Shown piece by piece: positions 17,960 through 53,123 of a stretch of 64,000 nt of DNA. The stretch spans positions 192,001-256,000 of the forward strand of contig CAWDDT010000011.1 in NCBI GenBank assembly GCA_963801165.1. Reading direction: 5' to 3'. The DNA is from an uncultured bacterium. GTDB lineage: Bacteria > Actinomycetota > Acidimicrobiia > Spongiisociales > UBA5794. Below the pieces are notes generated by a model. The model worked only from the letters and a program-made list of their open reading frames with translations, had not been told where the DNA came from and did not search any database. Numbering within the stretch: the first letter of the stretch is position 1; each line of letters starts with the position of its first letter. The translations under genes and the position numbers were made by a program.

Positions 17960-17972
17960 AGGGTCATTGGAG

Positions 17973-19602: not shown

Positions 19603-19605
19603 CGA

Positions 19606-21183: not shown

Positions 21184-21202
21184 GTGTACTCGTTTCCTCC
21201 TA

Positions 21203-28434: not shown

Positions 28435-28485
28435 CCAGGCCCCTTCCGTACGCTCCAAAAACGGGCCCTCCGACCCGCCCGGGCG

Positions 28486-31012: not shown

Positions 31013-31245
31013 AACGCCTCCTCAGAATCGAGTACCGGAGACTACAGGATCCGTCCGCCACTCAGACGAGATGCGCTTGCCCGGAGCGAGAATTGTGGCC
31101 GATCGCCGTCGAGCGCCGTAACGATCTGCTGGGTCAACGAGGAACCTACCTTCGGCCATGCAGCCTCTGGAAACTCGTACCGCCATGTATGTTCCGCCGC
31201 TACGGCTCAGGCAAGTCAGCAGGAAGGCCGGGTGAGCTGGTGGCC

Positions 31246-32202: not shown

Positions 32203-32271
32203 GAGAGGGCGGTCGGGTACCACCGGTGATCCCGGTGCCGTCGAGACGCCTCTACGGCTTGCCCACGGCGA

Positions 32272-32310
32272 GGCCCCCCGGGCCGTCCGAGGGGGGAAGG
32301 ACGAGCGGCG
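32272..32310 (-). repeat. Partial family B repeat (module X)
   Basis: ggccccccgggccgtccgaggggggaaggacgagcgg. Confidence 0.75.
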
Positions 32311-32384
32311 ACCACGCTGCCGACAATGAGCCAACATCGCGGCAACAACAGCGCAGCCAGCGTGGTCCCGATAATGTGGCGACC

Positions 32385-33533
32385 ATGAGTGAGCGCATTT
32401 ATCTGTCACCTCCGTCGCAGTCGGGAAACGAGCAGGCTGCCGTGGCCCGGGCCATAGAAAGCAACTGGATCGCTCCGCTCGGGCCGGAGGTCGATGAGTT
32501 CGAGGCCGAGCTGGCGGTGCAGTCGGGGGTCCCATTTGCGCTGGCGACATCGTCGGGGACCGCGGCCATCCATCTGGCACTGCTCGCTGTGGGCGTCAAA
32601 CGTGGCGATGTCGTCGTCGCCCCATCGTTCACGTTCATCGGGACGGTCACCCCGGTGTCGTTTATCGGCGCCGAGACCTGGTTTGTCGACTCGGAGCAGC
32701 AGTCGTGGAACCTCGACCCCAAGCTGCTCCAGGAGGCACTGGCCTCGGCACGATCCGAGGATCACCGCATCGGCGCCGTCATCGCCGTCGACCTGTTCGG
32801 GCAATGTGGCGATTACGACCGGATCCAGGAGATCTGCGATCGGTTCAAGGTGCCGCTAGTCGAGGACGCTGCCGAAGCACTGGGAGCCACGTACAAGGAC
32901 ATCCCGGCCGGGTCGTTCGGGCGGGTTGGGGTGCTGTCGTTCAACGGCAACAAGATCATCACCACATCAGGGGGCGGCGCCGTCGTGTCCGCCGACGAGC
33001 AACTGATCGAGCGGACGAGGTTTCTCGCCACCCAGGCCCGGGAGCCCGAGGTGCACTACGAGCACAGGGAGATCGGCTACAACTACCGCATGTCCAACCT
33101 GCTGGCCGCGGTGGGGCGGGCTCAGCTGTCGAACCTGGACCAACGGGTCAATGCGAGGCGGGAGATCTTCAACGCCTACGTGGCCCGTCTCAGCGATCTC
33201 CCCGGCGTCGAGTTCATGCCGGAAGCGCCCTGGGGCCGGTCGAACCGCTGGCTCACCACCCTCACCGTCGACCCCGACCTCTTCGGAGCCACCCGACACC
33301 AGATCATCGATGCCCTCGCCGCCGACAACATCGAGGCAAGACCGGTGTGGAAGCCGATGCACCTGCAACCGGTCTACGAAGACGCCCGGATGTTCGGCGG
33401 CGCCGTCTCGGCGCAGATCTTCAAGAACGGTCTATGTCTCCCGAGCGGCACCGACATGACCGAGGACGACATCGATCGGGTGGCCGGCATCGTCCGTTCG
33501 GTGCGGGACGATGGTCGACCAACGCCAGGGTGA
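32385..33533 (+). CDS. DegT/DnrJ/EryC1/StrS sugar aminotransferase (PglE/EpsN-like)
   Basis: IYLSPP, SSGTAAIHLAL, EDAAEALG, SFNGNKIITTSGGG, GYNYRMSN. Confidence 0.93.
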   Translation: MSERIYLSPPSQSGNEQAAVARAIESNWIAPLGPEVDEFEAELAVQSGVPFALATSSGTAAIHLALLAVGVKRGDVVVAPSFTFIGTVTPVSFIGAETWFVDSEQQSWNLDPKLLQEALASARSEDHRIGAVIAVDLFGQCGDYDRIQEICDRFKVPLVEDAAEALGATYKDIPAGSFGRVGVLSFNGNKIITTSGGGAVVSADEQLIERTRFLATQAREPEVHYEHREIGYNYRMSNLLAAVGRAQLSNLDQRVNARREIFNAYVARLSDLPGVEFMPEAPWGRSNRWLTTLTVDPDLFGATRHQIIDALAADNIEARPVWKPMHLQPVYEDARMFGGAVSAQIFKNGLCLPSGTDMTEDDIDRVAGIVRSVRDDGRPTPG

Positions 33534-33539
33534 CCCGGC

Positions 33540-33947
33540 CAACGGCGAGCACCGCTCGTCCTTCCCCCCTCGGACGGCCCGAGAGGCCGCCCGATCCCCC
33601 CGAAATGGGGGGATTGCTGTAGCGGCCCTCCCCCGGCGGGAGGGCGGGGCCAGACCCGACCGCAGGGAGGGGACAAAACCAACGGTGGCCGCCGGTCGTC
33701 CTTCCCCCCTCGGACGGCCCAGAAGGCCGCCCGATCCCCCCGAAATGGGGGGATCACTGCTCTCCTCCAATCGCCGCTGGTACACCCGATCGGCGGTCAC
33801 GCCAGTAGCAGCCCTCCCCTTGCGGGAGGGCGGGGCCAGACCCGACCGAGGGAGGGGACAAAACCAACGGTGGCCGCCGCTCGTCCGGTCCCCCCTCGGA
33901 CGGCCCAGAAGGCCGCCCGATCCCCCCGAAATGGGGGGATCACTGCT
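33540..33947 (+). repeat. Family B repeat array X-Y-X-spacer-Y-X
   Basis: X = caacgg..cttcccccctcggacggccc..ggccgcccgatccccccgaaatggggggat; Y = gtagcrgccctccc..gggagggcggggccagacccgacc..gggaggggacaaaac. Confidence 0.9.
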
Positions 33948-33982
33948 TGCCTACCCCAAACGGCGACCGCCGCCCGGCCGAT

Positions 33983-35500
33983 CTACGGTTGTTCGATTGC
34001 GAAGCTGTCGCTGTAGCTCGTCGTGGAGCCAACGAATGTGACTTGCAGCGCCTCGGGAGTCATCGTCAACAATGCGTATCCCCGTCCCGCATCGGGTGAA
34101 TTGGCTCCGAGCCAGGTCGCCAGGTAACCCAGCTCGGGGTCGGACGCGTTGATGCTGTACATGTCGTTGCCGCCGGCGTTGCCGACGATCACAAACACAG
34201 ATCCCGCACCCTTTGTGTAGATGTTGTCGCTGCCGTCATCCACCACACACTCGGTGCGGAAGGTCCCGGGCGTGGCACAGGTGATCTGCTTGGAGCGCTG
34301 GTAGTTGTGTTCGTGGCCGTGCAGGATGAGATCGACCTTCTTGTCCAAGAGCAAGTCGTAGACGTCGCTGCCCACCTCGCAGCCCTTCACACCTGCCGTC
34401 ACGCATGGTTTGTGCATGCCGACGATCACCCATTCGATCCCCTTCGCCCGGGCGTCATCGATGGTCGCCTCCAGCCATTGATAGTGGCTGCTGCCCACCC
34501 CGTAGTCGTAGCTCTCGCCGTCGACCTGGTTGTCGGCCCCGATCATGATGATGCGAGCAAGCTTGTCGACATCGAAGTAATACTCAGCGGCATAGGTGCC
34601 GGTGGAGCTCATCCGATCGGGGAGACAGGCGGCGAAGTTGCCGATGTAGCCGTTGACCCGGTCGTCATCCTCGTGGTTGCCAACCAACAGCTCGACGGGG
34701 AATTCCGTACCGAGGTAGCCCTTGACGTAGTCGCACCACTGGGACTCGGTGAGATTGCTATATGAGAGGTCACCCAGGGCGAGCAGAAACTCCGCATCGC
34801 TCGCCGCCATCGACGTAAAGGTGGCATCGGTGAGGCTGGTCGCCCCGAAGTCACCGCCGGCGGCGAAGGTGACCCCGCCCGACCCGCTCAGGCCAAGTGC
34901 CCTGGCAAGGAAGGTCGCCATCTGTTCGCGTGTGACGAAATCGGCCGGGCAGAACCGATCGTTGACCGGCGGGTTACAGCCCTTGGTGATCCCGGACGCG
35001 GCCAATGCCTCGATGTCGGCTGCGAACACCGAGCCGTCGTCGTCGACAAACGCATTGCCGCTCTCGTCAGCGGCCAGCCCGAAGGCCCGCACCAGGAACG
35101 CGGCCATCTGGCCCCGGGTCACCACATCGCCGGGGCAATAGCGGTCATTGACCGGCGGGTTGCAGCCCCTGGTGACCCCCGCGGCGGCGAGACGAGAAAT
35201 GTCGGCGTCGAACACCGAGCCGTCGTCATCGACGAACGGATCAGCGGTAGCCGCCGACAGGCCGAAGGCTCGGCTCAAGAATGCAGCCATCTGACCACGC
35301 GTCACCACATCGCCGGGGCAGAAACGGTCATTGACCGGCGGATTGCAGCCCCGGGTGATCCCGGCGGCGGCAATCGCCTCGATAGACGGCTCATGTATGG
35401 ATCCGTCGTCGTCGCTGAACGTCCCGGTCGCCAGCGCCGGGCCGACGCTCAGCACTGAGGCGAGCACGACCAGCACAGCAATCGTCATCCGGAGACGCAT
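33983..35500 (-). CDS. Secreted SLH-domain + calcineurin-like metallophosphoesterase
   Basis: Signal peptide; 3 SLH repeats; GGDFG, LGDLSY, GNHE, HGHEHNYQR. TACGCT lies 7 nt before the ATG. Confidence 0.88.
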   Translation of the reverse strand: MRLRMTIAVLVVLASVLSVGPALATGTFSDDDGSIHEPSIEAIAAAGITRGCNPPVNDRFCPGDVVTRGQMAAFLSRAFGLSAATADPFVDDDGSVFDADISRLAAAGVTRGCNPPVNDRYCPGDVVTRGQMAAFLVRAFGLAADESGNAFVDDDGSVFAADIEALAASGITKGCNPPVNDRFCPADFVTREQMATFLARALGLSGSGGVTFAAGGDFGATSLTDATFTSMAASDAEFLLALGDLSYSNLTESQWCDYVKGYLGTEFPVELLVGNHEDDDRVNGYIGNFAACLPDRMSSTGTYAAEYYFDVDKLARIIMIGADNQVDGESYDYGVGSSHYQWLEATIDDARAKGIEWVIVGMHKPCVTAGVKGCEVGSDVYDLLLDKKVDLILHGHEHNYQRSKQITCATPGTFRTECVVDDGSDNIYTKGAGSVFVIVGNAGGNDMYSINASDPELGYLATWLGANSPDAGRGYALLTMTPEALQVTFVGSTTSYSDSFAIEQP

Positions 35501-35540
35501 AGGAGCGAGCGTAGCCAAAGCGATGTTCCTACTCGTGCGA

Positions 35541-35750
35541 GTAGTAGCCCTCCCGTTACGGGAGGGCGGGGCCAGACCCGATCGAAGGGAGGGACTGAAC
35601 CGGGAGGGGGGCAAAACCAACGGCGACCGCCGCGCGTCCTCCCCCCTCGGACGGCCCGGGGGGCCGCCCGATCCCCCCGAAATGGGCGAATCACTGCTGC
35701 TCTCTCCCAATCGGCGGGGCCGGACCCGACCGAGGGAGGGGGGATCACTG
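35541..35750 (+). repeat. Family B repeat Y-X plus partial
   Basis: gtagtagccctcccgttacgggagggcggggccagacccga...cggacggcccggggggccgcccgatccccccgaaatggg. Confidence 0.88.
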
Positions 35751-35819
35751 TTTGCTCTTGCCGGAATCGGCGCTGGTACGCTCGCGGGGTTGGACCTGAT
35801 GCCCGTGGGAGGAGGCTCG

Positions 35820-36263
35820 TTGCAGGTCACAGTGCAGACCGAGATCGATGCGCCGGCGGATGCCGTCTTCGACTACATCGCCGATCTCTCCAACAACCCC
35901 AACTGGCAGAGCGGTGTCGAGACGACCATGTGGACCTCGCCTCCTCCGGTTGCGGTTGGATCCACCTGTGAGCAGACGCTCGACAGTGGGACGGTCGTCG
36001 AGTACGTGGTGACCGCGCTCTTACCCCGACGATCCATCACGATCGAAACCAGACGAGGCGCCGTGATCCCCACCACGGTCACCAGGACCGTCCAGGTCCT
36101 CAACGAAGCGAAGAGCCGCGTGCGGATGGACCTGACCGGCCACCCTCGCGGCTGGCGTCGTCTCACCGCTCCACTGGTGCCGCGGGCGATCCGGGGGGCG
36201 ATCGGCTCCGACTACCGCCGTCTCAAGCGAGTCCTGGAAGCTGCTCAGACACCGGAGGAGTAG
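35820..36263 (+). CDS. SRPBCC (polyketide cyclase/START) family protein
   Basis: TTG start after ggaggagg; IDAPADAVFDYIADLSNNPNWQ...RLKRVLE. Confidence 0.8.
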   Translation: MQVTVQTEIDAPADAVFDYIADLSNNPNWQSGVETTMWTSPPPVAVGSTCEQTLDSGTVVEYVVTALLPRRSITIETRRGAVIPTTVTRTVQVLNEAKSRVRMDLTGHPRGWRRLTAPLVPRAIRGAIGSDYRRLKRVLEAAQTPEE

Positions 36264-36296
36264 CCCGGTAGAGGACCTTTGTGTTCGGCGGTCCCG

Positions 36297-36941
36297 TCAG
36301 GACGCGCCCAGAACCCGGCGGATTTCGGCGGCAAGTGCCGCGCCGAGGCGCTTGTGGCTCTCGGCGTCGAGATGCACGCCATCGGCCGCGTCGACCGAGG
36401 CCACTGTTCCGGCATCGAAGACGGGGCAATCCCGAAGCTCACCGAGAGTCGTGTAGTGCTCAGCAAGGTGCAGAGACTCGTTACGCGCCTTGCCGAATCC
36501 CCACAGCAAGGATCGTCTCGTCGCCTTCCCCAACGGGGGCGGGGCAACAATCAGCACCGCGGGCGCCTGCCCGGCGGGGCCGCAGCCGCTGGAGAGGGCA
36601 ATATCCACGAGGGCGCCTACGCCGAGGGCGATCTCGGGGGCTTTCACCCGGAAGTAGCGCTTGAGGTCGTTGGTGCCGAGCATGATGACTACCAAGTCGA
36701 CCGGGGAATGCGAGGCGAGACAGGGGCCCAGATAGGAACGACCGTTGAGACCGGCGCCAAAAGGATCATCCCAGTTGCTCGTGCGACCCGGGAGACCCTC
36801 CTCGATCACGACGAAACCGGACCCCAGCGCCTGCTGCAACACGCCGGGCCAGCGGACGTCTCTCGGGAAGCGACCGCCGGAATCGACCACATACCCGTAT
36901 GTGTTGGAGTCGCCGTAGCAAAGGACCGTACGTGTGCTCAT
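36297..36941 (-). CDS. SGNH/GDSL hydrolase
   Basis: CYGDSNT, EGLPGRT, LGTND, DGVH. Confidence 0.93.
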   Translation of the reverse strand: MSTRTVLCYGDSNTYGYVVDSGGRFPRDVRWPGVLQQALGSGFVVIEEGLPGRTSNWDDPFGAGLNGRSYLGPCLASHSPVDLVVIMLGTNDLKRYFRVKAPEIALGVGALVDIALSSGCGPAGQAPAVLIVAPPPLGKATRRSLLWGFGKARNESLHLAEHYTTLGELRDCPVFDAGTVASVDAADGVHLDAESHKRLGAALAAEIRRVLGAS

Positions 36942-36990
36942 GTTTGCCTCCGGGATATGCCTCGAGCTCGGCTTGTTCCAGCGTAGGCGA

Positions 36991-37761
36991 CTACCCCAGC
37001 AGCAGCTTCTCTACGTCATCTCGTAGTGCCGCAGTGGTGGCGATGAAGCCGGGGACGAGCGGGTTTTCCTTGTTCCAGGTCGGCGTCGAGCCGTCCTTGA
37101 GCACTGCCCAGCCGCCGGCTGCGCGAAGCAGCGCGACGCCGGCGGCGAGATCCCACTCGTTCTTGGGCACGAGCGTCCAGGTGGCGTCGAGCCGTCCGGC
37201 GGCGACCAGCGACAACTTGTAGGCCACCGATCCCATCGGCACGACATGAAACGGGCCGCCCTCAAAGCGCTCCCACTCGCCCCGCCTCATCTCGGAACGG
37301 CTCGCCCCCACCCGCGCTCCCTCCAGGCTGGTCATGCCGGAAACGGGGTTGGGCCCGTTGTACACCAAACCGTCGTCGACCGTCCCGGTGATCCTCTCGC
37401 CGGTCGCCGGGTTGTGGATACCGCCTGCTACCGGCAACCCGTCTTCGATGAGACCGATCGACACACACCACTCCGGAATCCCCTCGACGAACTCCCGGGT
37501 CCCGTCGATGGGATCGACAATCCAGACCCGCTTTCTGCCGAGGCGCTCCTTGTCGTCGACGCTCTCCTCAGACAGCCATCCCTCCCCCGACTCGGGGAGG
37601 ACGCGCCGCATCTCGGCATCGACCAGCTCGTCGGCCTCGGTCACCGGATCGCCGCCTTCCTTGCGTCGAGCTGCGATCCGGCCCGGCGTGAAGTCGTCGA
37701 GCACGTCCAGTGCCGCGTCGAGCGCGGCGTTGATACGATCAAGATCTGAGGTGTGGCCCAC
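36991..37761 (-). CDS. cysQ: CysQ / inositol monophosphatase family phosphatase
   Basis: DPVTEAD, LSEE, WIVDPIDGTREF, GSVAYK, EWDLAAG. Confidence 0.8.
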   Translation of the reverse strand: MGHTSDLDRINAALDAALDVLDDFTPGRIAARRKEGGDPVTEADELVDAEMRRVLPESGEGWLSEESVDDKERLGRKRVWIVDPIDGTREFVEGIPEWCVSIGLIEDGLPVAGGIHNPATGERITGTVDDGLVYNGPNPVSGMTSLEGARVGASRSEMRRGEWERFEGGPFHVVPMGSVAYKLSLVAAGRLDATWTLVPKNEWDLAAGVALLRAAGGWAVLKDGSTPTWNKENPLVPGFIATTAALRDDVEKLLLG

Positions 37762-38438
37762 TAGTTCCCCTGTACGTTCTCGAGGCGCGCCATCCTGCCC
37801 GATGACCCCCAGCTGGCCACCACCAGCCCCGCGGCGTACGCGGTCAGCACCGCAAGCGCGGCCACCTGCCCGAAGTCCTCGGCAAACAACCACTCCCGGT
37901 TGATCCCGAACACGGAAATGGCGTTGACCGGGCCAACGAACACACCCACGACGAACAAGATCGCGATGAGGCGCACAACAACAGGGCGCTCTTCGAGCGA
38001 GGCGCTCCGATATGCCGCCAAAACCAATCCCCCGGCGATCACGGCCAGCGCCAGGAACAGCGACGCCAGATTGATGAACCCCGAGGAGACATGCAGGACA
38101 CTCTCCAGGCGCTGGGTAATCGGATTGGCAACGTCGTCCCACCAGCCGGCGTCGATCACGATGTGACCGAGTGTCAGCAACGACAACAGCAGCGCCAGCA
38201 CCCACATGCTCCGGCTACGGATCCTGTAGCCCACGTACACAAGAGCCACGATGCTGATCAGCTTGTACAGGATCGACAGGGCATTCAGCGGCCCCGCGTT
38301 TAGGCCGATCTCCGACGCATAGTCAACGCCGGCGGCCCACAGTGCCGCAGCCATGAGCGCCAGGCCGGCGGCCAGTGCCGCCTGGAGCGCTCGCCCTTGT
38401 AACCGCAATGATCCCCCCGAGGTGTCGAATTCGTTCAC
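37761..38438 (-). CDS. Membrane protein of unknown function
   Basis: About 6 hydrophobic segments; stop overlaps the cysQ start. Confidence 0.65.
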   Translation of the reverse strand: MNEFDTSGGSLRLQGRALQAALAAGLALMAAALWAAGVDYASEIGLNAGPLNALSILYKLISIVALVYVGYRIRSRSMWVLALLLSLLTLGHIVIDAGWWDDVANPITQRLESVLHVSSGFINLASLFLALAVIAGGLVLAAYRSASLEERPVVVRLIAILFVVGVFVGPVNAISVFGINREWLFAEDFGQVAALAVLTAYAAGLVVASWGSSGRMARLENVQGN

Positions 38439-38547
38439 GAGGCGCCAATGTACCGTGCGGTGGAGCCAACATCACTCGCCATGACCCATCGTCTGTCGGG
38501 TGCACTGCGCCACGGCCCCAGAGCCTTCTGCCACTATCGTCCACTCG

Positions 38548-39654
38548 ATGGAAGTGACGGTGCCCGATTACAACGGCGGATCCCTCGTCAACCTGATCGC
38601 CGAGCTCGAGTACCGGCTGATCGGTTCGGCGCAGTCTCCCCGGCTTCATCCCCGGCTGGCCGCCGAGATCGCCGACGCCGCCACATATGTGCTGTGTCTG
38701 TTCGACGGGCTCGGCTACATGCAGCTCGACCATCCGGCAGCGGGGGCGCTGCGGGAGTCGTGCCGGGCCGCGATCGACAGCCCCTTCCCGGCAACGACGA
38801 CTGTCAGCCTGGCGGTCCTCGCCACCGGACTGCCGCCCTCTCAACACGGTCTGCTCGGGTACCAGGCGTGGATCCCCGAGCTCGACACCGTCGTCAATAC
38901 GATCCACTGGACGACGCTGTGGGGGGAGAAGCTCGAGTACCCGTTCGCCGACTTCCTCCCGGCACCGAACCTAGCCGAGAGGCTGTCCGCCGCCGGGATC
39001 GATGTCGTCACTGTCCAACCCGCCAAGTTCGACAACACCCCGCTGACCCAGGTGCTGTTTCGAGGATGCCGGTTCGAAGGGGTGGAGAGCATCGGGGAGT
39101 GGCTGGATGCGGTGACCCAACTCGCCGCGCAACCCAATCGGCTCGTCGTGGCCTACCTACCCAATGTCGACTACGCCGCCCACGTTGGTGGGCAGAAGTC
39201 GCCTCAGTACAACGAAGCAGTCACGACGGTCGCCGCCGCCTGGGAGGGGGTGCGCAACCGGCTACCCAAGGGTGTCGTCGCCGTCGGCACCGCCGATCAC
39301 GGCCACGTCGACTTCCCCAAGCGAAAGCAGATCAAGATCGACAGACCGGACCACCAGGACCGAATGTTCTACGGTGATGGCCGGGCCATGTTCGTCAGGG
39401 GCGACGGAGAGTCGCTCGCCCGAAAACTCCCGGCGACGTGGATACCCGTCGCCGACATGATCCACTGGTGGGGCCCGGAACCACGTCACCCTCAGGTCGC
39501 CCGGCGTCTCCCCGACGGGGTTCTGCTCGCCGACGACGACGCATTGTTGCTCCACCGCTACTCCGACGACCGTATGGTGGGTAACCACGGTGCGCTCACC
39601 GACCCGGAGCGTCTCATCCCGCTCATGGTCTCCGGTCCCGGTGCCGATAGCTGA
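38548..39654 (+). CDS. Alkaline phosphatase superfamily nucleotide pyrophosphatase/phosphodiesterase
   Basis: FDGLG, FPATT, DYAAH, TADHG, GNHG. TATCGT lies 7 nt before the ATG. Confidence 0.88.
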   Translation: MEVTVPDYNGGSLVNLIAELEYRLIGSAQSPRLHPRLAAEIADAATYVLCLFDGLGYMQLDHPAAGALRESCRAAIDSPFPATTTVSLAVLATGLPPSQHGLLGYQAWIPELDTVVNTIHWTTLWGEKLEYPFADFLPAPNLAERLSAAGIDVVTVQPAKFDNTPLTQVLFRGCRFEGVESIGEWLDAVTQLAAQPNRLVVAYLPNVDYAAHVGGQKSPQYNEAVTTVAAAWEGVRNRLPKGVVAVGTADHGHVDFPKRKQIKIDRPDHQDRMFYGDGRAMFVRGDGESLARKLPATWIPVADMIHWWGPEPRHPQVARRLPDGVLLADDDALLLHRYSDDRMVGNHGALTDPERLIPLMVSGPGADS

Positions 39655-39679
39655 AAATCCCAAAACCCTGGAAGGACTC

Positions 39680-40501
39680 ATGCGGCGGCTCGCTCTCATC
39701 ATCTCCCTGGTCATGCTGACGGCGGCGTGCTCGAGCAACAGCAGCGACGAGACCACAAGGTCCGCGGCTGCACCGACAACGACCGTCGCCACTACCACCA
39801 CCGTCGCGACAACGACGACCACGGCAACAACAACCACAGCCGCCCAGGACACGACAACCAGCGCCGCTCCGGCTGGGGACCTCGCGTTTGAAACCATCAC
39901 CGGCACGCCCCCCGACGCGTTCGACAGCTTCTCCGCCACCATGACGATGAAGATGCACGCACAGGACCTCGACATCGAAGCCACCTCGGAGGGCGTGTGG
40001 ACGGCCGACGGTTTCCAGTGCACGATCACCTCTGCTCTCGGTGGATTGAACATCAGCGAATCGGTCATCGGCACACCGCAGCAACTCTGGTACGACCAGG
40101 GCAACGGCTACGAGCCGTCGGATCTCCTCGACCCGGGGGCGCAGAGCGTCATGTCGAGCTGCCCGACCTCTCCCCTGTTCTGGGCGAGCTTCACCACCGA
40201 CAACCTGGGTGACGTCACCGGCGCCGAAACCACCTACAACGGCAGAGCCGCCTACAAGGCCGACCTCTCCGACCTCCTCGGCGCACTGGGCGGTCTCGGC
40301 CTGGCCGATCTCCAGGGAGCCGACATCAATGACATGACGGTCTGGATCGACGCCGAGACCAGGACGATCATCGCACTCACGGCCGAGCTTCAGATGACCG
40401 CCGAAGCGCTGACGGGCGCCGCAGGGGACGCCGTCACGATGACGATGGAAGTCGCTCTGGACCAGTTCAACGACCCATCCCTAACCATCAACGAGCCCTA
40501 A
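39680..40501 (+). CDS. Lipoprotein with Thr-rich linker (possibly LolA/LppX-like beta fold)
   Basis: MRRLALIISLVMLTAAC lipobox; VWID motif near the C-terminus. Confidence 0.75.
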   Translation: MRRLALIISLVMLTAACSSNSSDETTRSAAAPTTTVATTTTVATTTTTATTTTAAQDTTTSAAPAGDLAFETITGTPPDAFDSFSATMTMKMHAQDLDIEATSEGVWTADGFQCTITSALGGLNISESVIGTPQQLWYDQGNGYEPSDLLDPGAQSVMSSCPTSPLFWASFTTDNLGDVTGAETTYNGRAAYKADLSDLLGALGGLGLADLQGADINDMTVWIDAETRTIIALTAELQMTAEALTGAAGDAVTMTMEVALDQFNDPSLTINEP

Positions 40502-40507
40502 CCACAG

Positions 40508-41001
40508 CAAGCAGCAATCCCCCCTCGGGGGAATCGGACAGGCCTCCCGGGCCGTCCGAGGGGGAAGAACAAACAGCGGCCGCCGTTGATGTTTGCCCCC
40601 TCCCGGTCCAGCCCCTCCCTGCGGTCGGGTCTGGCCCCGCCCTCCCACAAGGGGAGGGCCACTACTCGCGCAACTGCCGATCTGTCGCTGAGAACAAGCA
40701 GCAATCCCCCCATTTCGGGGGGATCGCACGGCCCCCCGGGCCGTCCGACGGGGGAAGAACAAACGGCGCCCGCCGTTGATCGACGGCTCGTCTTGTGAGC
40801 CGGAACCAAGCAGCAATCCCCCCATTTCGGGGGGATCGCACGGCCCCCCGGGCCGTCCGACGGGGGAAGAACAAACGACGCCCGCCGTTGATCGACGGCT
40901 CGTCTTGTGAGCCGGAACCAAGCAGCAATCCCCCCATTTCGGGGGGATCGGACGGCCTCTGGGCCGTCCGAGGGGGGAAGGGCGAACAGCGCTCGCCGTT
41001 G
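40508..41001 (-). repeat. Family B repeat array upstream of the DUF559 gene, including a 112-bp tandem period
   Basis: aagcagcaatccccccatttcggggggatcg starts at 40696, 40808 and 40920; a Y module and a degenerate X lie at 40508-40667. Confidence 0.92.
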
Positions 41002-41047
41002 TCCCGCTCCCCTTGAACACCAATCTCGGTCGCCGCATGCTGGTGAC

Positions 41048-41398
41048 ATGGACAAGAGACTCATCGCGTTCGCTCGCGAGCATCGCAAGAATCCCACGTG
41101 GGCGGAAACTACCTTGTGGTCAGATCTGCGCGCCGGGCAGTTCGGCCACAAATTCAGACGCCAACAACCGATCGGCCCCTACATCGTCGACTTCGTCTGC
41201 TTCGAGAAGCGCCTCATCATCGAAGTCGACGGGCTATCACACGACATAGATGACTCTCAACGCGACCGTATCCGACAACGGTGGCTCGAGGACCATGGAT
41301 ACGTGGTGCTCCGCTTCAACGACGACGAGGTCCACGACGAACGCGACGAAGTCGGTGATGCGATAGCGGCAGTGCTCGATCAAGAATCACCGACATAG
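41048..41398 (+). CDS. DUF559 / Vsr-like endonuclease-domain protein
   Basis: ARE.RKNPT.AE..LW..LR...KFRRQQPIGPYIVDFVC....LIIEVDG..H.....RD..R...L...GY.VLRF. Confidence 0.92.
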   Translation: MDKRLIAFAREHRKNPTWAETTLWSDLRAGQFGHKFRRQQPIGPYIVDFVCFEKRLIIEVDGLSHDIDDSQRDRIRQRWLEDHGYVVLRFNDDEVHDERDEVGDAIAAVLDQESPT

Positions 41399-41450
41399 CG
41401 CCGGTCGGACAGAACAATCCGCCCCAACACCCGATCCATGTGGGCTGCGT

Positions 41451-41685
41451 CAACGGCGAGCGCCGCCCGTCCTTCCCCCCCGAACGGCCCGGAGGGCCGT
41501 CCGATCCCCCCGAAATGGGGGGATCACTTCTTGCAGCCCTCCACTGGAGGGAGGGCGGGGACAGACCCGACCGCAGGGAGGGACTGGACCGGAAGGGGGA
41601 CAAAACCAACGGCGGCCGCCGCCCGTTCTCCCCCCTCGGACGGCCCAGGGGCCGCCCGATCCCCCCACCTCGGGGGGATCACTAC
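41451..41685 (+). repeat. Family B repeat array X-Y-X downstream of the DUF559 gene, inverted relative to the upstream array
   Basis: Begins caacggcgagcgccgcccgtccttcccccc, close to the reverse complement of the 40972-41001 end. Confidence 0.92.
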
Positions 41686-41814
41686 TCCCCGGCACCCGAT
41701 CCATCGCTACGCGAATAACCCTCCCCCGGAGGGAGGGTGGGACGTGACGGCGGGCGGGCATTTCGAGCTTCGTAGCCGGGGGGCCGGGGTTCGTGGCATC
41801 ATGAGGTGGCTCCC

Positions 41815-43038
41815 ATGGAACAAACGACCCCACCTCAATCGCTGCGTGTCATTGCGTCGTCCGAGATCTACCTGAAATCCCGGCGCACCCGGCGTCACTT
41901 CATGCCGATCTTGCGCGCCAACCTGGAGGCAGCCCTGGGCGCCGCGGTTCCGGACGCGAAGGTGCGTCAGCGGGGCAACCAGGAGTTCGAGGTCAGAACC
42001 GGGGACCTGACCACCGCGGCTGAAGCCGCGGCGACAGTGTTCGGGGTCGACCGCATCGATCGCGTCCTGCCGATCGATGCAACCAGCCTCGACCAGATCA
42101 CGCGGGACGTGGTCCGGCTGGCGGCTCCTTCAGTGGACAACCGCAAGTTCGCGGTACGAGTGCGCCGCAGCGGCGACCACGACTGGCGCTCGCACGACGC
42201 CGAGGTGGCCATCGGCAGCGCCCTCATCGACAGATCCGCAGGGGTCGACCTCAGCAACCCCGACTTCACCGTGCGGGTACGTGTCGAAGGCACTGCCGGC
42301 GTCGTCGTTGCCGAGTCGTGGCGCGGTCCCGGCGGGCTGCCCGTGGGAACGCAATCGCCGTGCCTCGTCATGCTCTCCGGTGGCATCGACTCGCCGGTGG
42401 CGGCATGGATGATGATGAGGCGCGGCTGCCCGATCGACATGCTCCACTTCCAGCTCGAGTGCAACCAAGCCGACCATGCCCTCGCCGTCGGCCACCAGCT
42501 CGCCACCCGCTGGGGTCACGGCGCCGGCATCAACCTGCACGTCGTCGACTTCGAGCCCGTGAAGAAAGAACTCGGAGTATCGGCTCAGGCCAAGTACCGG
42601 CAGGTGCTGCTCAAGCAGCTGATGACAGAGGCCGCGCACCGGGTCGCCCGGGAGTTGCAGATCCCCCTGCTCGTTACCGGTGACTCGTTGGGCCAGGTCT
42701 CGTCCCAGACCGCCGCCAACCTCATCGAGATCGACAAATACGCACAGGCTCCCGTGCTCCGACCGCTGCTTGCCATGACCAAGCAAGAGATCGTCGATCG
42801 GGCGCGGGTGATCGGCACCTACGAGCTGTCGACCCGAGCCCGCGAGGTATGCGACCTCTCGGAAGGCAAACCCGTGGCAACCGCCGCCGCCACCTACCGG
42901 CTCCGCAAAGGGATGAGCCTTCTGCGCACGGGGCTGATCGACGATGCCATTGCCACATGGGAGTCGGTGCCGGCAGCCGACTGGTTCCCCAGTGTGCCGC
43001 TGACACCCCAAAGCAGCGCTTCCCGACAAAATCCTTGA
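41815..43038 (+). CDS. thiI: tRNA 4-thiouridine synthase ThiI (THUMP + PP-loop, no rhodanese domain)
   Basis: EIYLKS, FAVRVRRSG, GPGGLPVG, LSGGIDSPVA, TGDSLGQVSSQT, RPL. Confidence 0.9.
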   Translation: MEQTTPPQSLRVIASSEIYLKSRRTRRHFMPILRANLEAALGAAVPDAKVRQRGNQEFEVRTGDLTTAAEAAATVFGVDRIDRVLPIDATSLDQITRDVVRLAAPSVDNRKFAVRVRRSGDHDWRSHDAEVAIGSALIDRSAGVDLSNPDFTVRVRVEGTAGVVVAESWRGPGGLPVGTQSPCLVMLSGGIDSPVAAWMMMRRGCPIDMLHFQLECNQADHALAVGHQLATRWGHGAGINLHVVDFEPVKKELGVSAQAKYRQVLLKQLMTEAAHRVARELQIPLLVTGDSLGQVSSQTAANLIEIDKYAQAPVLRPLLAMTKQEIVDRARVIGTYELSTRAREVCDLSEGKPVATAAATYRLRKGMSLLRTGLIDDAIATWESVPAADWFPSVPLTPQSSASRQNP

Positions 43039-43093
43039 TCACAGGCGATCGAGCGCCGATCATCCCCCAAAGGGTTACCTACAGGACGGAACG

Positions 43094-44434
43094 ATGTCTT
43101 TCGGAAGCGCGCGTGCGAGAATTCTCGTTGTTGTCTGGCTGCTGCTTGTCGGAGCGGCAGTCGCGGTCGGCGTCACCAACGAGCAGAATGATCTGGGAAA
43201 CAAGGCGGAAGCGGCGCTCAACGGTGCCGGCGTTGCCGCAGAGGTCGACATTTCAGGCCGCGACGTCACCCTGGTCGGCACGGCGGAAAACGAGCAGCGA
43301 GCGACCGAGATCGTCGCTGCAATCGATGGTGTCCGGACCGTGAGCTGGCGGGCCGAGACGCCCGAGGCGGCGGCCGAGACGACCACAACCACCACACTGC
43401 CTGCCACAACCACGACCCCGTCGACTACATCCGAATCGACATCGACCCTTCCGCCGATCACCGAAGACGACCAGCCTCAGGTCGCCCATCTCGACGCCCG
43501 GCTCCAGAACGGACAGCTCACCCTGCGAGGAAGGATCCCCGATGCTGAGGCGGCTGCCAAGCTCGCTGCCGTCGCCGACCTCATCTACTCGCCGCTTCTC
43601 GACAACCAGGTTGTCGTCGATCCGGACATCGAGACCGCCTCATGGGTCGCAAACGTGTCAAACGTCGTCGCCGTTCTGCCCATCGTTGGGACGTCGGGGA
43701 TCACAGTGAACGGCGAGCAGGCCACCGTCTTCGGGTATGCTCCGCATCAGGAGCGTCTCGCCCAACTCGAGGGAGCGCTCGCCCAGGCACTCGGACCCGA
43801 CGTCACACTCGAAAGTGAAGTCGTCGTCACCGGCCTCGCCCCGCCCAGCATCAACGCCGCCGTCAACAACGACGGCATCCTCAGGTTGAGCGGCACGGTC
43901 CCCAACCAGGGTGTCGCCGCCTTCGCTCACCGTCTCGCGGCCGAGAGCTTCGGTGAGGACAACGTCGTCGACGAGATCGAGGTCGATCCGTCCGTCGACA
44001 CGACGTTCTCCCTGTTCCGGCTTCCCCTCGTCTTCCCGGCGTTCGCCCCGTTCCCCGAATGGCACGTCGAGATCTATGACAACGTCATCGGTGGTCAGCT
44101 CCTCAACGGCGCGAGCTTCCCGTCGGCCAGCGCCGAGCTGACACCGCAACTCGAACAGCTCATGCCGGTTGGTGTCGGAATTCTCACCAGGAACCCGAGC
44201 CTCGTGCTGACGGTCGAGGGACACACCGACAACGTCGGGTCCCCCGAGTCGAACCAGGCGCTGAGCGAGGCACGCGCCGAAGCCGCCAGGCAATGGTTCA
44301 TCGCCGCCGGCATCGCCCCCGAGCGGGTCTTCGCCGTCGGCTACGGAGAGACACGACCGATCGCCGACAATGAAACGCCCGAGGGACGCGCCATGAATCG
44401 GCGCATCGAGTTCAGACTGGGTCCGCCCGAATAG
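43094..44434 (+). CDS. BON-domain + OmpA-like peptidoglycan-binding protein (ArfA-like)
   Basis: N-terminal TM; ISGRDVTLVG BON; VEGHTDNVG...NQALSEARA...GYGETRP...NRRIEF. Confidence 0.85.
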   Translation: MSFGSARARILVVVWLLLVGAAVAVGVTNEQNDLGNKAEAALNGAGVAAEVDISGRDVTLVGTAENEQRATEIVAAIDGVRTVSWRAETPEAAAETTTTTTLPATTTTPSTTSESTSTLPPITEDDQPQVAHLDARLQNGQLTLRGRIPDAEAAAKLAAVADLIYSPLLDNQVVVDPDIETASWVANVSNVVAVLPIVGTSGITVNGEQATVFGYAPHQERLAQLEGALAQALGPDVTLESEVVVTGLAPPSINAAVNNDGILRLSGTVPNQGVAAFAHRLAAESFGEDNVVDEIEVDPSVDTTFSLFRLPLVFPAFAPFPEWHVEIYDNVIGGQLLNGASFPSASAELTPQLEQLMPVGVGILTRNPSLVLTVEGHTDNVGSPESNQALSEARAEAARQWFIAAGIAPERVFAVGYGETRPIADNETPEGRAMNRRIEFRLGPPE

Positions 44435-46337: not shown

Positions 46338-47846
46338 CTAGAGGACGTAGTGCAGGGCGTTGAGAAGCGGCCAGGGCAGGACACCGAGGAGGATCGTGAG
46401 GCCTGCGGTGAGCAGGATGACAAACCCGGAGCTGCGAGTCATCCGTGGTACCGCCGTCGCGGTCCCGGGTGCCTCGGCCAGCACCGGGTCCTGGAAGTAC
46501 ATCAGCACGACTACCCGCAGGTAGAAGAACAAACCGGCGATCGAAGCAACCAGAGCCACGATCACCAGCCACAGGTAGCCCGCCGAGATCGCCTGAGTGA
46601 ATACGGCGAACTTCCCGACGAACCCGGAGAAGAACGGGATGCCACCCATGCCGAGCATGAACACCGCCAACGAGCCGGCGACCCACGGTGATCGAGCGAA
46701 GAGCCCCTGGTACGAATCGAAGTCGGACCGTCCCGAACGCACCCCGCTGACCACGCCGACGACGGTGAACGCACCCACCAGCGCAATGACGTAGGTGATC
46801 AGGTAGAACATGATCGAGGGAATGGCAACCGCTCCGTTGACGAATGCGGTGAGCATGAAACCGGCGTGCGCGACACTGGAGTACGCCAGCATCCGCTTCA
46901 GGTCCCTCTGCCCGATGGCACCCATCGTGCCCACCACGATCGAGAGCACGGCGATCAGCGCCAGGATGGGCGCCCAGTCGTTGATCCGGCTCGCAAACGC
47001 CCCCATCAGGATCCGGATGAGCGCCCCGATGGCGGCGACCTTCACCCCGGCGGCCATCAGCGACACCGAGCCGGAGGCAGCGCCCTGATAGACATCGGGT
47101 GCCCACTGATGGAACGGCGCGGCCGAGACCTTGAACGCCAGCCCGACGATGATGAGCGCGATACCGACAAGGAGAATGCTCACGTCGAGCATCACCACCG
47201 GTTGGGTGGAGAAGAACGACCTGATCCCTCCGGTGCCGTAGATCGTCACCGATCCGGTGGCGGCATACACCAGCGCAACGCCGTAAATGAACATCGCCGA
47301 GGCGAACGACCCGAGCAGGAAGTACTTGAGCGCCGCCTCGTCCGAGTTGCGCTCGACCCGAACGAAACCTGCGATCACATACAGTGCGATCGACGCCGTC
47401 TCGAGACCCATGAACAACAGGACGAGGTTCGACGACATGACCATCATGTGCAGACCGGCCGCCGCCAGCAGAACCAACGCCACGTACTCGGCACCCCGCT
47501 TGCCCAGAGTCGTGACCAGCTCCCAATTGCCGACGACGGCGAGGAACGCAATCAGGTAGACGGTCATACCGGCCAAAGCCGAGAAACGATCCATGACGAC
47601 CATCGGGTTGCTGATCGTCGAGGTGACGCCACGGGCCGAGAACGCCAATTCCCGGGCCGAGCCCAGCGAGTCGAGCCGTAGCCACTGCAACAGCGAGAGC
47701 ATCGACGCCACGACAAGAGCTACTACCCCGACCACACCCCATTCGCGGCGTTCCTGTCCCAGGGCTACCGCGCTCATCAGCACGAGCACGGCTCCAACGA
47801 GAACGGCTATCTCGGGTGCGATGGGCAGAAAAGCAATGTTCTCCAC
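46338..47846 (-). CDS. nuoN: NADH-quinone oxidoreductase subunit N (complete cluster)
   Basis: EAALKYFLLG, FKVSAAPFHQWAPDVYQGA, KRMLAYSSVAHAG. Confidence 0.95.
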   Translation of the reverse strand: MENIAFLPIAPEIAVLVGAVLVLMSAVALGQERREWGVVGVVALVVASMLSLLQWLRLDSLGSARELAFSARGVTSTISNPMVVMDRFSALAGMTVYLIAFLAVVGNWELVTTLGKRGAEYVALVLLAAAGLHMMVMSSNLVLLFMGLETASIALYVIAGFVRVERNSDEAALKYFLLGSFASAMFIYGVALVYAATGSVTIYGTGGIRSFFSTQPVVMLDVSILLVGIALIIVGLAFKVSAAPFHQWAPDVYQGAASGSVSLMAAGVKVAAIGALIRILMGAFASRINDWAPILALIAVLSIVVGTMGAIGQRDLKRMLAYSSVAHAGFMLTAFVNGAVAIPSIMFYLITYVIALVGAFTVVGVVSGVRSGRSDFDSYQGLFARSPWVAGSLAVFMLGMGGIPFFSGFVGKFAVFTQAISAGYLWLVIVALVASIAGLFFYLRVVVLMYFQDPVLAEAPGTATAVPRMTRSSGFVILLTAGLTILLGVLPWPLLNALHYVL

Positions 47847-49372
47847 TACTCACCACCTCCCACGCTTGCCAGATCCTGCGGCACACCGTATTGCGGCACC
47901 GTGTAGTCCGTCGATTGCTCGATGCGCTGCAGCACCTCGTTCACCGCCGGCTCGATGCGGTCGAGAGCCGGCTTCGGGTAGACACCCAGGACAAGGATGA
48001 GGACGGCGAGCGGAGCGATGATCAGCACCTCCCGCCTGTCGAGGTCGAGCAGCTTCTCGTTCTCCTTGTGGATCATCGGCCCGGTGAAAACTCGCTCGTA
48101 GGCCCACAGCAGGTAGACCGCAGCGAGGATCACCCCGGTGGCGGCGAGGACGGCGGCGACCGGGAATCGGAGGTAGGAGCCGAGCAGGATGTTGAACTCG
48201 CCTATGAACCCGTTGAGACCGGGCAGACCCGCCGAGGCGAAAACGGAGAACAGGAACAGACCGGCGAACACCGGCATCACCCTGGCGATGCCGCCGTAGT
48301 CGGAGATCTGCCTGGTGTGACGGCGCTCATAGATCATCCCGACAAGCAGGAACAGCGCACCGGTGGAGAGACCGTGATTGACCATCTGGATGACGCCACC
48401 GGTCAGACCCTGGCTGGTCATGGCAAAGATGCCGAGGATGATGAAACCGAGGTGGCTCACCGACGAGTATGCGACTAGTCGCTTCACATCTGGCTGGACG
48501 ATGGCAACCACCGCCCCGTAGATGATGCCGACGACGGCGAGAGCCGCCAGCCAGGGGGCGAAACGCACCGCGGCCTCGGGGAACAGGGTCAGGTTGAAGC
48601 GGATGAACCCGTACGTCCCCAGCTTCAGCAGGACACCGGCCAGCAGCACCGAACCGGCGGTGGGCGCTTCGGTGTGGGCATCGGGCAGCCACGTGTGGAA
48701 CGGGAAGATCGGCACCTTGACTGCGAAGGCGATGCCAAAAGCGAGGAACAGCCAGGTCTGCTGCGTCGAGGTGAGACCGACGTTGAGGATCTGGGTGAAA
48801 TCAAACGTACCGGCGATGACCCCGAGCCAGATGATGCCGGTGAGCATCAGCGCCGAGCCGAGTGCGGTGTATAGGAAGAACTTCACCGCGGCATAAACCC
48901 GGTTGCCGCTCCCCCAGATCCCGATCAACAGGTACATCGGGACGAGGGTGATCTCGAAGAACACAAAGAACAGCAGCAGGTCGAGCGCGACAAAGACCCC
49001 GAGCATCCCGGTCTCCAGTAGCAGCATCGCCACCATGTACATCTTCTGGTTCTTGGTGACCGACTTCGACGCTGCGATCGACAGGGGGAACAAGATGGCG
49101 GTCAGAGCCAGGAGCAGCAGCGAGATACCGTCGACACCGACGTTCCACGAGATGCCGAGCGGCTCGTACCACAGCACCTGCTGGGTGAACTGGTAGCCGG
49201 AAATGCCGACCTGGAACTCCCACAGCACGTAGCCGACCATCGCCAGCGGCAGGAAGCTGAGGGTCAGCGCCAGCGGGTAGACCAGCTCGGTGCGACGCTT
49301 GGGGATCAGGGCGACGACGAGCGCGGCGAGCGTCGGCAGCAACACCATGACGGCGAGAGTGGGAAAGGTCAC
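47846..49372 (-). CDS. nuoM: NADH-quinone oxidoreductase subunit M (complete cluster)
   Basis: AVKVPIFPFHTWLPDAHTEAPTAGS, KRLVAYSSVSHLG. Confidence 0.95.
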   Translation of the reverse strand: MTFPTLAVMVLLPTLAALVVALIPKRRTELVYPLALTLSFLPLAMVGYVLWEFQVGISGYQFTQQVLWYEPLGISWNVGVDGISLLLLALTAILFPLSIAASKSVTKNQKMYMVAMLLLETGMLGVFVALDLLLFFVFFEITLVPMYLLIGIWGSGNRVYAAVKFFLYTALGSALMLTGIIWLGVIAGTFDFTQILNVGLTSTQQTWLFLAFGIAFAVKVPIFPFHTWLPDAHTEAPTAGSVLLAGVLLKLGTYGFIRFNLTLFPEAAVRFAPWLAALAVVGIIYGAVVAIVQPDVKRLVAYSSVSHLGFIILGIFAMTSQGLTGGVIQMVNHGLSTGALFLLVGMIYERRHTRQISDYGGIARVMPVFAGLFLFSVFASAGLPGLNGFIGEFNILLGSYLRFPVAAVLAATGVILAAVYLLWAYERVFTGPMIHKENEKLLDLDRREVLIIAPLAVLILVLGVYPKPALDRIEPAVNEVLQRIEQSTDYTVPQYGVPQDLASVGGGE

Positions 49373-51249: not shown

Positions 51250-51251
51250 CG

Positions 51252-53119: not shown

Positions 53120-53123
53120 TATC

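Follow-up and report, generated by a model that had tools for sequence, protein, structure and literature searches.

Can a small nuclease of the Vsr fold be to a dispersed hairpin repeat what a tyrosine transposase is to the repeats of a REPtron? In passages of PMC3733652, REPtrons are described as repetitive extragenic palindromic (REP) repeats and their composites, bacterial interspersed mosaic elements (BIMEs) or REP doublets forming hairpins (REPINs), together with REP-associated tyrosine transposases (RAYTs, TnpA-REP). The question is raised by positions 40508 to 41742 of a 64,000-nt stretch of contig CAWDDT010000011.1 (hereafter the window) from an uncultured acidimicrobial bacterium (genome G000), where a DUF559/YcjD-like gene of 116 codons stands between facing arrays of one repeat with two modules, X and Y. 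DUF559/YcjD proteins are a widespread orphan nuclease family, and BoxC/PIT/TMECO repeats have been catalogued since the 1990s. The locus is best read as a nuclease-repeat cassette, in which a small Vsr-fold gene with its own putative promoter lies between inverted X copies. One nuclease family is associated, in an oriented and widely conserved manner, with one structural class of repeat, and the cassette has relocated between species. Judging from sequence, the nuclease may also bind and cleave the repeats and take part in their propagation. The initial annotation had put a Vsr-fold nuclease in the RAYT position of a dispersed hairpin repeat; the location and the association have held, the core of the idea has come through every test run here, those meant to refute it among them, and its enzymatic part is kept here as a conditional claim.

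A nuclease gene between facing repeat arrays

The nuclease gene (41048-41398, + strand) is intact and free-standing, with a putative lipoprotein gene on one side and thiI on the other. Upstream of it are four X units of ~85 nt on the + strand, starting at 40508, 40695, 40807 and 40919, and one ~77-nt Y after the first X. Downstream follow an X, a Y and an X, all inverted, at 41449-41686. An inverted Y module is present on either side of the gene, and the longest inverted match between the two flanks covers 114 nt (86%). The earlier description of a 116-aa DUF559 gene between opposite-facing arrays of a two-module repeat was accurate, coordinates included, and the array ends it had quoted are indeed inverted copies of each other (40972-41001 and 41451-41480, 30 nt, 87% complementary).

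The upstream array begins with X1 (40508-40590, +), which belongs to direct-repeat family D1/D3 and matches the X profile with an expectation value (E) of 1e-18. Y1 (40591-40667, +), recognized by the Y profile (E 2e-19) and by its fold, carries GTAG before the hairpin on the opposite strand; it is an inverted triplex-motif-like module in which two C-rich blocks are followed by a GCCCTCCC...GGGAGGGC hairpin. X2 (40695-40780, +) has its palindromic head at 40704-40725, the left breakpoint of a 955-nt polymorphism described below. A 26-nt spacer hairpin (GGCTC...GAGCC, 40781-40806, +) comes next, with a second copy at 40893-40918, and these are its two occurrences in the whole genome. X2 and the spacer are duplicated in tandem as two 112-nt copies of 99% identity, X3 (40807-40892, +) being the recent duplicate. 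X4 (40919-41003, +) is the gene-proximal left inverted repeat. It is built of a C6 arm, a loop, a G6 arm, a GGACGGCC..GGCCGTCC hairpin, a second G6 block (40972-40977) and a CAACGG-type hairpin.

The downstream array mirrors this order. X5 (41449-41533, -; X-profile E 2e-21) is the gene-proximal right inverted repeat and forms the inverted pairs I6 and I9 with X4. Y2 (41528-41605, -; Y-profile E 3e-18) is inverted, and so is X6 (41606-41686, -), whose head (41659-41680) is the right breakpoint of the polymorphism. Between the gene and X5 the right arm of an X head, its leader and native flank recur in decayed form (41405-41439, +; 35 nt matching 41670-41704 at 74% identity). The 12-bp direct repeat CACCCGATCCAT that the initial annotation had seen framing the downstream array is real (41428-41439 and 41693-41704, +). 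Its first copy ends the decayed X-head stretch, and its second sits in the native flank, where an allele lacking the cassette has the same sequence with one base changed. A flanking direct repeat of at least 9 nt occurs at one of the 27 X/Y arrays, this being the 12-bp pair, and repeats of at least 12 nt arose by chance in 5 of 2000 random window pairs. As it is unique among the 27 arrays, the pair is a peculiarity of this locus, not of the repeat family. Close to the thiI promoter region, on its upstream side, a separate triplex-motif-like hairpin (CCCTCCC-CCGGA-GGGAGGG-TGGG, 41718-41742, +) is present with or without the cassette.

We then inspected the modules themselves. The consensus of 47 unique X copies reads AGCAGTGATCCCCCC ATTTC GGGGGGATC GGACGGCC CCCC GGGCCGTCC GA GGGGGG AAGGACGAGCGGCGGTCGCCGTTG, and both G6 blocks are near-invariant. 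In the predicted consensus fold the C6 arm is partly paired with the distal G6 block; hence C6 is able to pair with either G6 block. Pairing in the middle hairpin is kept by two-sided changes at two positions, in 4 copies each, and G-T pairs are frequent in the X stems (16/47 and 20/47 unique copies at two stem positions). To us X looks like a three-block unit: a pyrimidine arm comes first, a purine arm second and a purine block third, and a stable hairpin appears to stand where the short second loop would be. It can accordingly be read as a variant of the pyrimidine-arm-first BoxC/TMECO triplex-motif architecture, the triplex being a prediction. Y consists of two C-rich blocks followed by GCCCTCCC-loop-GGGAGGGC, a unit of the kind seen in X but running the other way, and X and Y side by side therefore make an inverted doublet. 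Of the 16 full Y units, 13 have GTAG ahead of the hairpin, in line with the earlier remark that Y usually starts with it; among X leaders it is found in 8 of 39 units, and the remainder have GCAG, ACAG, GAAG or TTAG.

The encoded protein contains a single Pfam domain, PF04480, at residues 4-110. The match covers positions 2-108 of the 109-position profile at E 8.4e-34, with 116.2 bits against a cut-off of 20.6. The NCBIfam YcjD model aligns with the protein end to end (E 3e-23), the score lying under the equivalog cut-off, and the Pfam Vsr model PF03852 gave no match at E 0.01 or better. An alignment of 15 sequences, comprising the DUF559 proteins of relatives, has D48, E59, D61, G62, H65, D73 and R76 invariant. 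The catalytic pattern Asp, Glu-x-Asp, His is therein represented by D48, E59, D61 and H65. In the PDB, the profile of this alignment matches 3HRL (E 1.2e-33), an endonuclease-like protein that is uncharacterised, and 3R3P (E 6.9e-5), which represents the catalytic, Vsr-like domain of I-Bth0305I, a homing endonuclease. The protein is thus a putative nuclease, homologous by these profile matches to the nuclease domain of I-Bth0305I, an enzyme described in passages of PMC3239194 as working as a dimer on a pseudopalindromic site. A PADLOC scan returned marginal matches only (HEase 0.003, DpdF 0.004-0.007). The GC content of the gene is 57.5%, and its GC content at third codon positions (GC3) is 0.70, the mean for genes of the genome being 0.78 with a standard deviation of 0.04.

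Immediately before the gene is a promoter-like stretch (41013-41047, +), read by eye as TTGAAC (41013-41018), a 17-nt spacer, CATGCT (41036-41041), 6 nt and the ATG. The same geometry, TTGAAY or TTGTAA, 17 nt, CAYNNT, 6-7 nt and a start codon, is common to all four loci of clade A, the clade of DUF559 proteins to which this one belongs. As a scan with the sigma-70 consensus gave no match upstream of the gene and the assignment is based on the geometry shared by four loci, we infer a promoter here from that geometry. Such an arrangement would imply a leaderless or near-leaderless mRNA.

Hairpin repeats in the genome, in relatives and in other phyla

How far does the repeat extend beyond this locus, and do other nuclease genes have it? 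The genome (98.2% complete, 5.6% contamination) was searched with profiles of X and Y at a threshold of E 1e-3, giving 58 and 19 matches, respectively, which together make up 25 loci. Single units or one-way arrays account for 23 of these. Facing arrays around a gene are found at the nuclease locus only, the other locus of mixed orientation being a 42-nt partial match 1226 nt from an array. X copies, as a rule in company with an inverted Y, occupy about two dozen intergenic loci that are nuclease-free. Counted by hand, the gene pairs around X/Y loci are convergent in 7 cases, divergent in 4 and tandem in 13, which argues for an element acting at the DNA rather than the RNA level. The loci have no consistent strand relative to the neighbouring genes. 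Hairpins were also counted independently of the profiles. A strict hairpin was defined as a perfect 7-bp stem with one arm all-pyrimidine and the other all-purine; the 4.55-Mb genome has 150 of them versus 17 in shuffled sequence. The pyrimidine arm comes first in 148 of the 150, and 126 fall in none of the crude gene calls. There are 42 perfect X heads.

Within the window, the other module sites named by the initial annotation turned out to be of unequal quality. The sites at 33540-33949 (five X/Y units) and 35539-35698 (a Y and an X) were confirmed, the one at 32272-32313 is merely a weak partial X match (E 7e-4), and the one at 17973 is a decayed X unit read by eye that falls under the profile threshold. 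The last of these, an inverted unit at 17960-18035, suggests an old copy eroding in place. A known RNA family was considered and rejected, as an Rfam scan of 30000-44000 (E <=1) gave three matches, all far under their gathering scores (whalefall-1, 25.6 vs 37; COG2908, 24.1 vs 58.7; Atu_L6, 21.9 vs 100).

A repeat map of the genome was built from 16-mers, 14-mers being too noisy (13% of the genome masked). Repeated 16-mers cover at least 40 nt in 105 of 2882 intergenic gaps, and both short DUF559 genes of the genome lie in such gaps. The use of single-linkage clusters of repeat loci as a family count was dropped, because coding S-layer-homology repeats adjoin non-coding modules and 131 loci were fused into one component. 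The large family of S-layer-homology repeat proteins (GITKGCNPP...VTRGQMAAFL; window 31093-32199, 33986-35830 and many other loci of the genome) is the source of the most abundant repeated 16-mers and confounds naive repeat clustering. Two regions of several kb, on contigs C13 (27562-33907) and C5 (299205-305214), are dense in repeated 16-mers.

The genome has three DUF559 matches, namely the nuclease gene, a second short gene on contig C7 (209488-209847, -; outside the window) and a weak C-terminal match in a 347-aa frame. The second short gene also has hairpin arrays on both sides, of a different family (GCCGACTCTTTCCTTCTCCC-loop-GGGAGAAGTGCCGAGCG and relatives), and within C7:209243-210250 its flanks share a 182-nt composite palindromic repeat of 95% identity. 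We then looked for other enzymes that could serve the repeats. No match to Y1/RAYT (PF01797) was found in the genome at its 98.2% completeness, a control search being positive in 6 of 14 known genomes, and neither TnpB, Vsr (PF03852) nor C5-cytosine methylase (PF00145) was found. The genome-wide count of repeats (58 for X) and DUF559 and RAYT genes that the initial annotation had called for is thereby in hand; a RAYT gene elsewhere carrying the same repeat, which it had set against its own proposal, was not encountered. Its statement that the window holds no transposase also stands, with no transposase family among 46 crude gene calls.

These searches bear on the possibility that X and Y are derivatives of a miniature inverted-repeat transposable element (MITE), moved by an unlinked transposase, with the nuclease gene as passive cargo. 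Units looking like terminal inverted repeats around a cargo gene would suit it, as would the several multi-copy insertion sequence (IS)-like elements of the genome. The X/Y arrays, in contrast, have no flanking target-site duplications beyond the one 12-bp repeat; hairpin loci and IS-like copies fall into separate similarity clusters; Y1 transposase and TnpB are lacking among the matches; and a cargo caught passively would not be expected to belong to one family in 66 of 80 loci across many phyla (see below). We regard this origin as very improbable.

In 30 relatives of the same order there are 16 short DUF559 genes, and 15 of them have a strict hairpin within 350 nt, the exception being L027. 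Near the genes, 37 strict hairpins occur in 9,912 nt versus 10 in 28,986 nt farther out (~11-fold), and control loci around thiI have none in 47,282 nt. Several of the genes have a contig end no more than a few hundred bases away, which would be expected of repeats that interrupt assemblies. Strong flank-to-flank similarity is seen at 4 of 17 loci tested, hence the constant feature is the hairpin type and not a long terminal repeat. By eye the DUF559 proteins form three clades that differ in hairpin type. The clade-A genes of G000, G008 and G013 have X-type heads in their flanks, the clade-A gene of G009 (105 nt of flank available) has another hairpin type, and clade-B genes are flanked by CCYTCTCCC...GGGAGAGGTGGCCGAGCG units. 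Among 31 genomes (including the unpublished G021), eight have perfect X heads, with counts of 42, 24, 10, 9, 2, 2, 2 and 1, and the other 23 have none; the reversed control is 0 everywhere. The clade-A genomes G000, G008 and G013 account for 42, 24 and 2 of these. Proteins sharing a hairpin arm are 51.8% identical versus 47.5% for other pairs, a difference reached in 0 of 1000 permutations. Nuclease clade therefore tracks repeat type in part; the co-variation that the initial annotation had proposed to test is present, with G009 and G001 as exceptions.

The association extends far beyond this order. A scan of species genomes with the 15-sequence alignment gave 597 confirmed loci, of which we took the best 80, spanning Actinomycetota, Proteobacteria, Chloroflexota, Planctomycetes, Omnitrophota, Bacteroidetes and others. 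Five of the 80 gene calls are over-long frames and were retained in the count, and at least two loci duplicate loci of the relatives set. A strict hairpin lies within 300 nt of the gene at 66 of the 80. Near the genes there are 113 hairpins in 45,074 nt versus 35 in 328,371 nt beyond 500 nt (~23-fold), and 112 of the 113 have the pyrimidine arm first. Hairpins are upstream in 60 loci and downstream in 28. Upstream units have the order pyrimidine arm, loop, purine arm, ~3 nt, purine block and gene, the extra purine block facing the DUF559 gene, and downstream units are inverted copies. Thus in this genome, at 15/16 genes in relatives and at 66/80 loci across phyla, DUF559 flanks are far more repeat-rich than other intergenic DNA, which was the enrichment the initial annotation had asked about. 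In E. coli K-12, a consensus-like unit, CCCTCGCCCC TCT GGGGAGAGGG TTA GGGTGAGGGG, lies ~180 nt downstream of the DUF559 gene ycjD, and a related hairpin overlaps the ycjD stop codon. In the same ycjD-fabI interval (L046:5240-5420), ~40 nt of the ycjD 3' end (tggagacggtgctggagaatattc...ctgaaccg) is repeated downstream, between the BoxC-like stop-codon hairpin and the TMECO unit.

Might small foreign genes and repeats simply gather in the same permissive intergenic gaps? The lipoprotein-thiI junction is variable in relatives, and one of them, L003, has an unrelated hairpin unit there, as such a coincidence would allow. Against it, both DUF559 genes of this genome lie among the 105 repeat-bearing gaps out of 2882, hairpins are 23-fold denser near the genes than in the far flanks of the same genes, 47 kb of control loci contain none, and around the gene the units keep their orientation and polarity. 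Coincidence is accordingly hardly credible.

Gene and hairpins also co-occur at the level of whole genomes. A phylum sample of 201 genomes (completeness at least 90%) was scored for short DUF559 genes at E 1e-15 and for hairpin excess, defined as at least 20 matches to YYYYYCCC-N3-6-GGGRRRRR and at least 4x the reversed control, read by hand; the unpublished G031, G047, G097, G117, G148, G174 and G199 were counted in the DUF559-negative, hairpin-poor class, and no conclusion depends on a single one of these or on the likewise unpublished G021. Of the 10 genomes that have a short DUF559 gene, 6 show a hairpin excess, as against 6 of the 191 that lack one (Fisher p 2e-6, not corrected for relatedness). 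A family-level table, in which relatedness is not fully corrected, gives 5/9 vs 3/46 (p 0.0016). Three genomes, G048, G057 and G209, have 48-107 pyrimidine-arm-first hairpin matches and no DUF559 match, and may either have lost the gene or use another partner.

Gain, loss and relocation of the cassette

Is the cassette a fixture of its junction? A metagenome scan with a 42-nt query from the lipoprotein gene end returned one contig, L127, which aligns with 38460-40725 at 99.3% (2266 nt) and with 41657-42059 at 98.0% (403 nt). The alignments have 24 nt in common, inside GATCCCCCCATTTCGGGGGGATC, the hairpin head. The segment missing from L127, 955 nt at 40726-41680, comprises the X2 body, X3, X4, the promoter, the DUF559 gene, X5, Y2 and the X6 body; what is left is the X2 leader, a single head and the inverted X6 leader. 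Under an excision and under an empty target alike, the gene and its inner repeats come or go as a single block, and the breakpoints of that block fall in the hairpin head. As none of the 42 X heads of this genome has the leader-head-leader form, we lean to excision from a cassette-bearing allele, probably by exchange between two 9-nt GGGGGGATC arms held together by the inverted repeats, and do not favour the alternative that L127 represents an empty target site. The cassette-less allele is known from this single contig and may be a misassembly, though we reason that an assembler would not typically collapse the two sides over a shared stretch as short as 9-22 nt.

The junction varies in relatives as well. 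In seven same-genus genomes whose contigs span the lipoprotein-thiI junction, thiI synteny is kept and DUF559 is absent from all seven. One junction is ~80 nt long, one (L003) has a single unrelated hairpin unit, and five have a lipoprotein-like gene. Nuclease-free junctions, which the initial annotation had suggested looking for, are thus at hand, seven in relatives and one in a near-identical strain without the cassette. The small lipoprotein-like gene in the junction (L004-L007 and L014) encodes 139-166 aa on the opposite strand and is conserved; neither this genome nor two other relatives have it. In L007 the junction also contains a five-copy ~57-nt tandem repeat (735-1030; GGCCGATGCAATCAGCTTCGAGTTCGACACAACCGAACTC...) unrelated to X/Y.

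Clade-A genes occupy four unrelated contexts in four same-genus genomes. One of these is an intergenic site adjacent to a tRNA gene (L021/L022/L025 in G008/G012/G001), where G008 has a clade-A cassette, and G012 and G001 have clade-B cassettes in the opposite orientation. At the two loci with mapped ends the inserts measure 840 nt (clade A, G008) and 585 nt (clade B, G012). The site looks like a recurrent landing site for DUF559 cassettes.

This mobility calls to mind a selfish homing-type gene, in which DUF559 would cut the head and copy itself in, the flanks being the two halves of a split target and the repeats having spread otherwise. The family profile matches the catalytic domain of I-Bth0305I (E 7e-5), whose site is pseudopalindromic according to passages of PMC3239194, the presence/absence breakpoints are inside a palindromic head, different cassettes sit at the same site in different species, and the GC3 of the gene is below that of host genes. 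These points are countered by the single copy per clade despite 42 perfect X heads as targets, by the lack among those heads (0/42) of the leader-head-leader form expected of an empty target, and by a 116-aa protein without a separate NUMOD-type DNA-binding domain. Homing therefore appears unlikely.

A host maintenance nuclease is a further candidate. The protein would take part in Vsr-like repair or structure processing of T:G mismatches, hairpins or triplexes; its gene would happen to be regulated or insulated by nearby repeats and would have no part in spreading them. The Vsr fold and Vsr-type catalytic residues agree with such a role, X stems often contain G-T pairs (16 and 20 of 47), gene and hairpins co-occur at the genome level, and passages of PMC12907096 describe Caulobacter VsrA as SOS-induced and damaging when the cytosine methylase is missing. 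It is set back by the searches of this genome, in which no PF00145 methylase and no canonical Vsr were found, and it leaves unexplained the bracketing by inverted units across phyla, the differing sites within a genus and the joint gain and loss of gene and repeats. We consider this reading decidedly unlikely.

As an observation apart from the cassette, the window has two separate gene sets for NADH-quinone oxidoreductase (complex I type), at 18070-28458 and 46341-61440.

Proposed mechanism and comparison with known systems

How would such a nuclease act on its repeats? We give an even chance to a REPtron-like nuclease/repeat partnership built on a different enzyme class, with the nuclease as trans-acting partner of the repeats. 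The nuclease would recognize the extruded hairpin or the three-block head and nick or cut at the head. The break would be repaired by copying from another repeat locus or by template switching. Such repair would spread and homogenise the repeats, and might occasionally move the gene with its flanking units.

Several points weigh against this partnership. We know of no PD-(D/E)XK nuclease that transposes DNA alone. The arrays grow by plain tandem duplication, as the 112-nt copies of 99% identity attest, and replication slippage between the 9-nt GGGGGGATC arms inside inverted repeats would alone suffice for the cassette-less allele. Across phyla, 14 of 80 loci have no strict hairpin nearby, a downstream hairpin is present in only 28 of 80, and hairpins are on both sides in 26 of 71. 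The genome-level tests do not fully correct for relatedness; 4 of the 10 DUF559-positive genomes have little hairpin excess, and 6 of the 191 negative ones are hairpin-rich, so that repeats can exist without the gene. When five of these hairpin-rich negative genomes were searched again with the alignment profile, three gave nothing and two gave weak partial matches. In the same order, G009 has a clade-A gene and yet no X heads, and G001 (77% complete) has 10 X heads, its clade-A gene not having been found. Finally, Caulobacter VsrA, itself a DUF559 protein, is tied in passages of PMC12907096 to cytosine methylation and DNA damage instead.

A broader proposal, to which we give slightly less than even chances, is that short DUF559/YcjD proteins are the long-missing partner enzymes of BoxC/PIT/TMECO-type repeats across phyla. 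They would constitute a second, independent system of the REP-RAYT kind, in which a PD-(D/E)XK nuclease reads a non-B structure and drives the spread, homogenisation and excision of repeats and cassettes by break-induced copying, not by transposition chemistry. If so, the spread and maintenance of the repeats and the function of YcjD-type proteins become one testable system, and repeats will have entered into partnership with a domesticated nuclease on more than one occasion, through enzymes of unrelated chemistry. The locus and its genome offer three handles: a single genome in which two paralogous nucleases go with separate repeat families, a variant repeat X whose second loop is itself a hairpin, and two natural alleles, one carrying the cassette and one lacking it, that differ at breakpoints within the hairpin head.

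Among known repeats, the closest are BoxC/PIT/TMECO elements, whose consensus is given as CCCTCNCCC N3-6 GGGNGAGGG N3 GGGNGAGGG in passages of Holder et al. (2015, PMC4666352). The units here have the same order of pyrimidine arm, loop, purine arm and further purine block, are intergenic and have no strand bias, and the units beside DUF559 genes in other phyla fit the published consensus closely. X differs in that its arms are C6/G6 and its second loop, 3 nt in the consensus, is a hairpin of 25 nt, and it does not conform to that consensus; Y and the unit at 41718-41742 are nearer to it than X, yet inexact. On structural grounds, then, the repeats are assigned to the BoxC/TMECO class, with X outside the published consensus. 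Passages of the 2015 survey report no mobility genes near TMECO sites, and in its main text, the part considered here, the words nuclease, endonuclease and ycjD have 0 occurrences each. A literature search over titles and passages, with few subscription journals covered, found no link between DUF559/YcjD and BoxC/TMECO-type repeats.

Of the enzymes, the EDxHD homing endonuclease I-Bth0305I (3R3P) shares the homologous Vsr-like core and the conserved acidic and His residues, and is tied in passages of PMC3239194 to gain and loss of its own gene. The nuclease here differs in its length of 116 aa without a NUMOD/helix-turn-helix region, in lying outside an intron or intein, and in being single-copy and repeat-bracketed. 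Vsr and VsrA have the Vsr fold and catalytic residues in common with it, and Caulobacter VsrA, a DUF559 protein, is in passages of PMC12907096 SOS-induced and damages DNA in vivo when its cognate cytosine methylation is missing. The differences are the lack of a PF03852 match, the lack of a C5-methylase among the matches in this genome, and the repeat bracketing, which is foreign to the Vsr picture. From MITEs and IS derivatives the arrays are set apart by having no target-site duplication pattern (1/27 arrays) and, in our searches, no transposase with matching ends.

In REPtrons and here alike, a single-copy enzyme gene lies between inverted copies of a short palindromic repeat (here X4 and X5), the repeat occurs in tens of intergenic copies as singlets, inverted doublets (here X with Y) and arrays, a repeat family of its own goes with each enzyme paralogue, and target duplications are absent. 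The GTAG tag beside the hairpin gives a mixed picture, being present in 13 of 16 Y units and in the leaders of only 8 of 39 X units. The systems differ in that the enzyme here is a PD-(D/E)XK protein of the Vsr fold and not an HUH Y1 transposase, for which no gene was found in the genome, in that the repeats are pyrimidine-arm-first three-block units and not generic REP stems, and in that the nuclease gene changes position among same-genus genomes. With the HUH enzyme absent, the nuclease cassette is not a member of the REPtron family, though its logic is the same.

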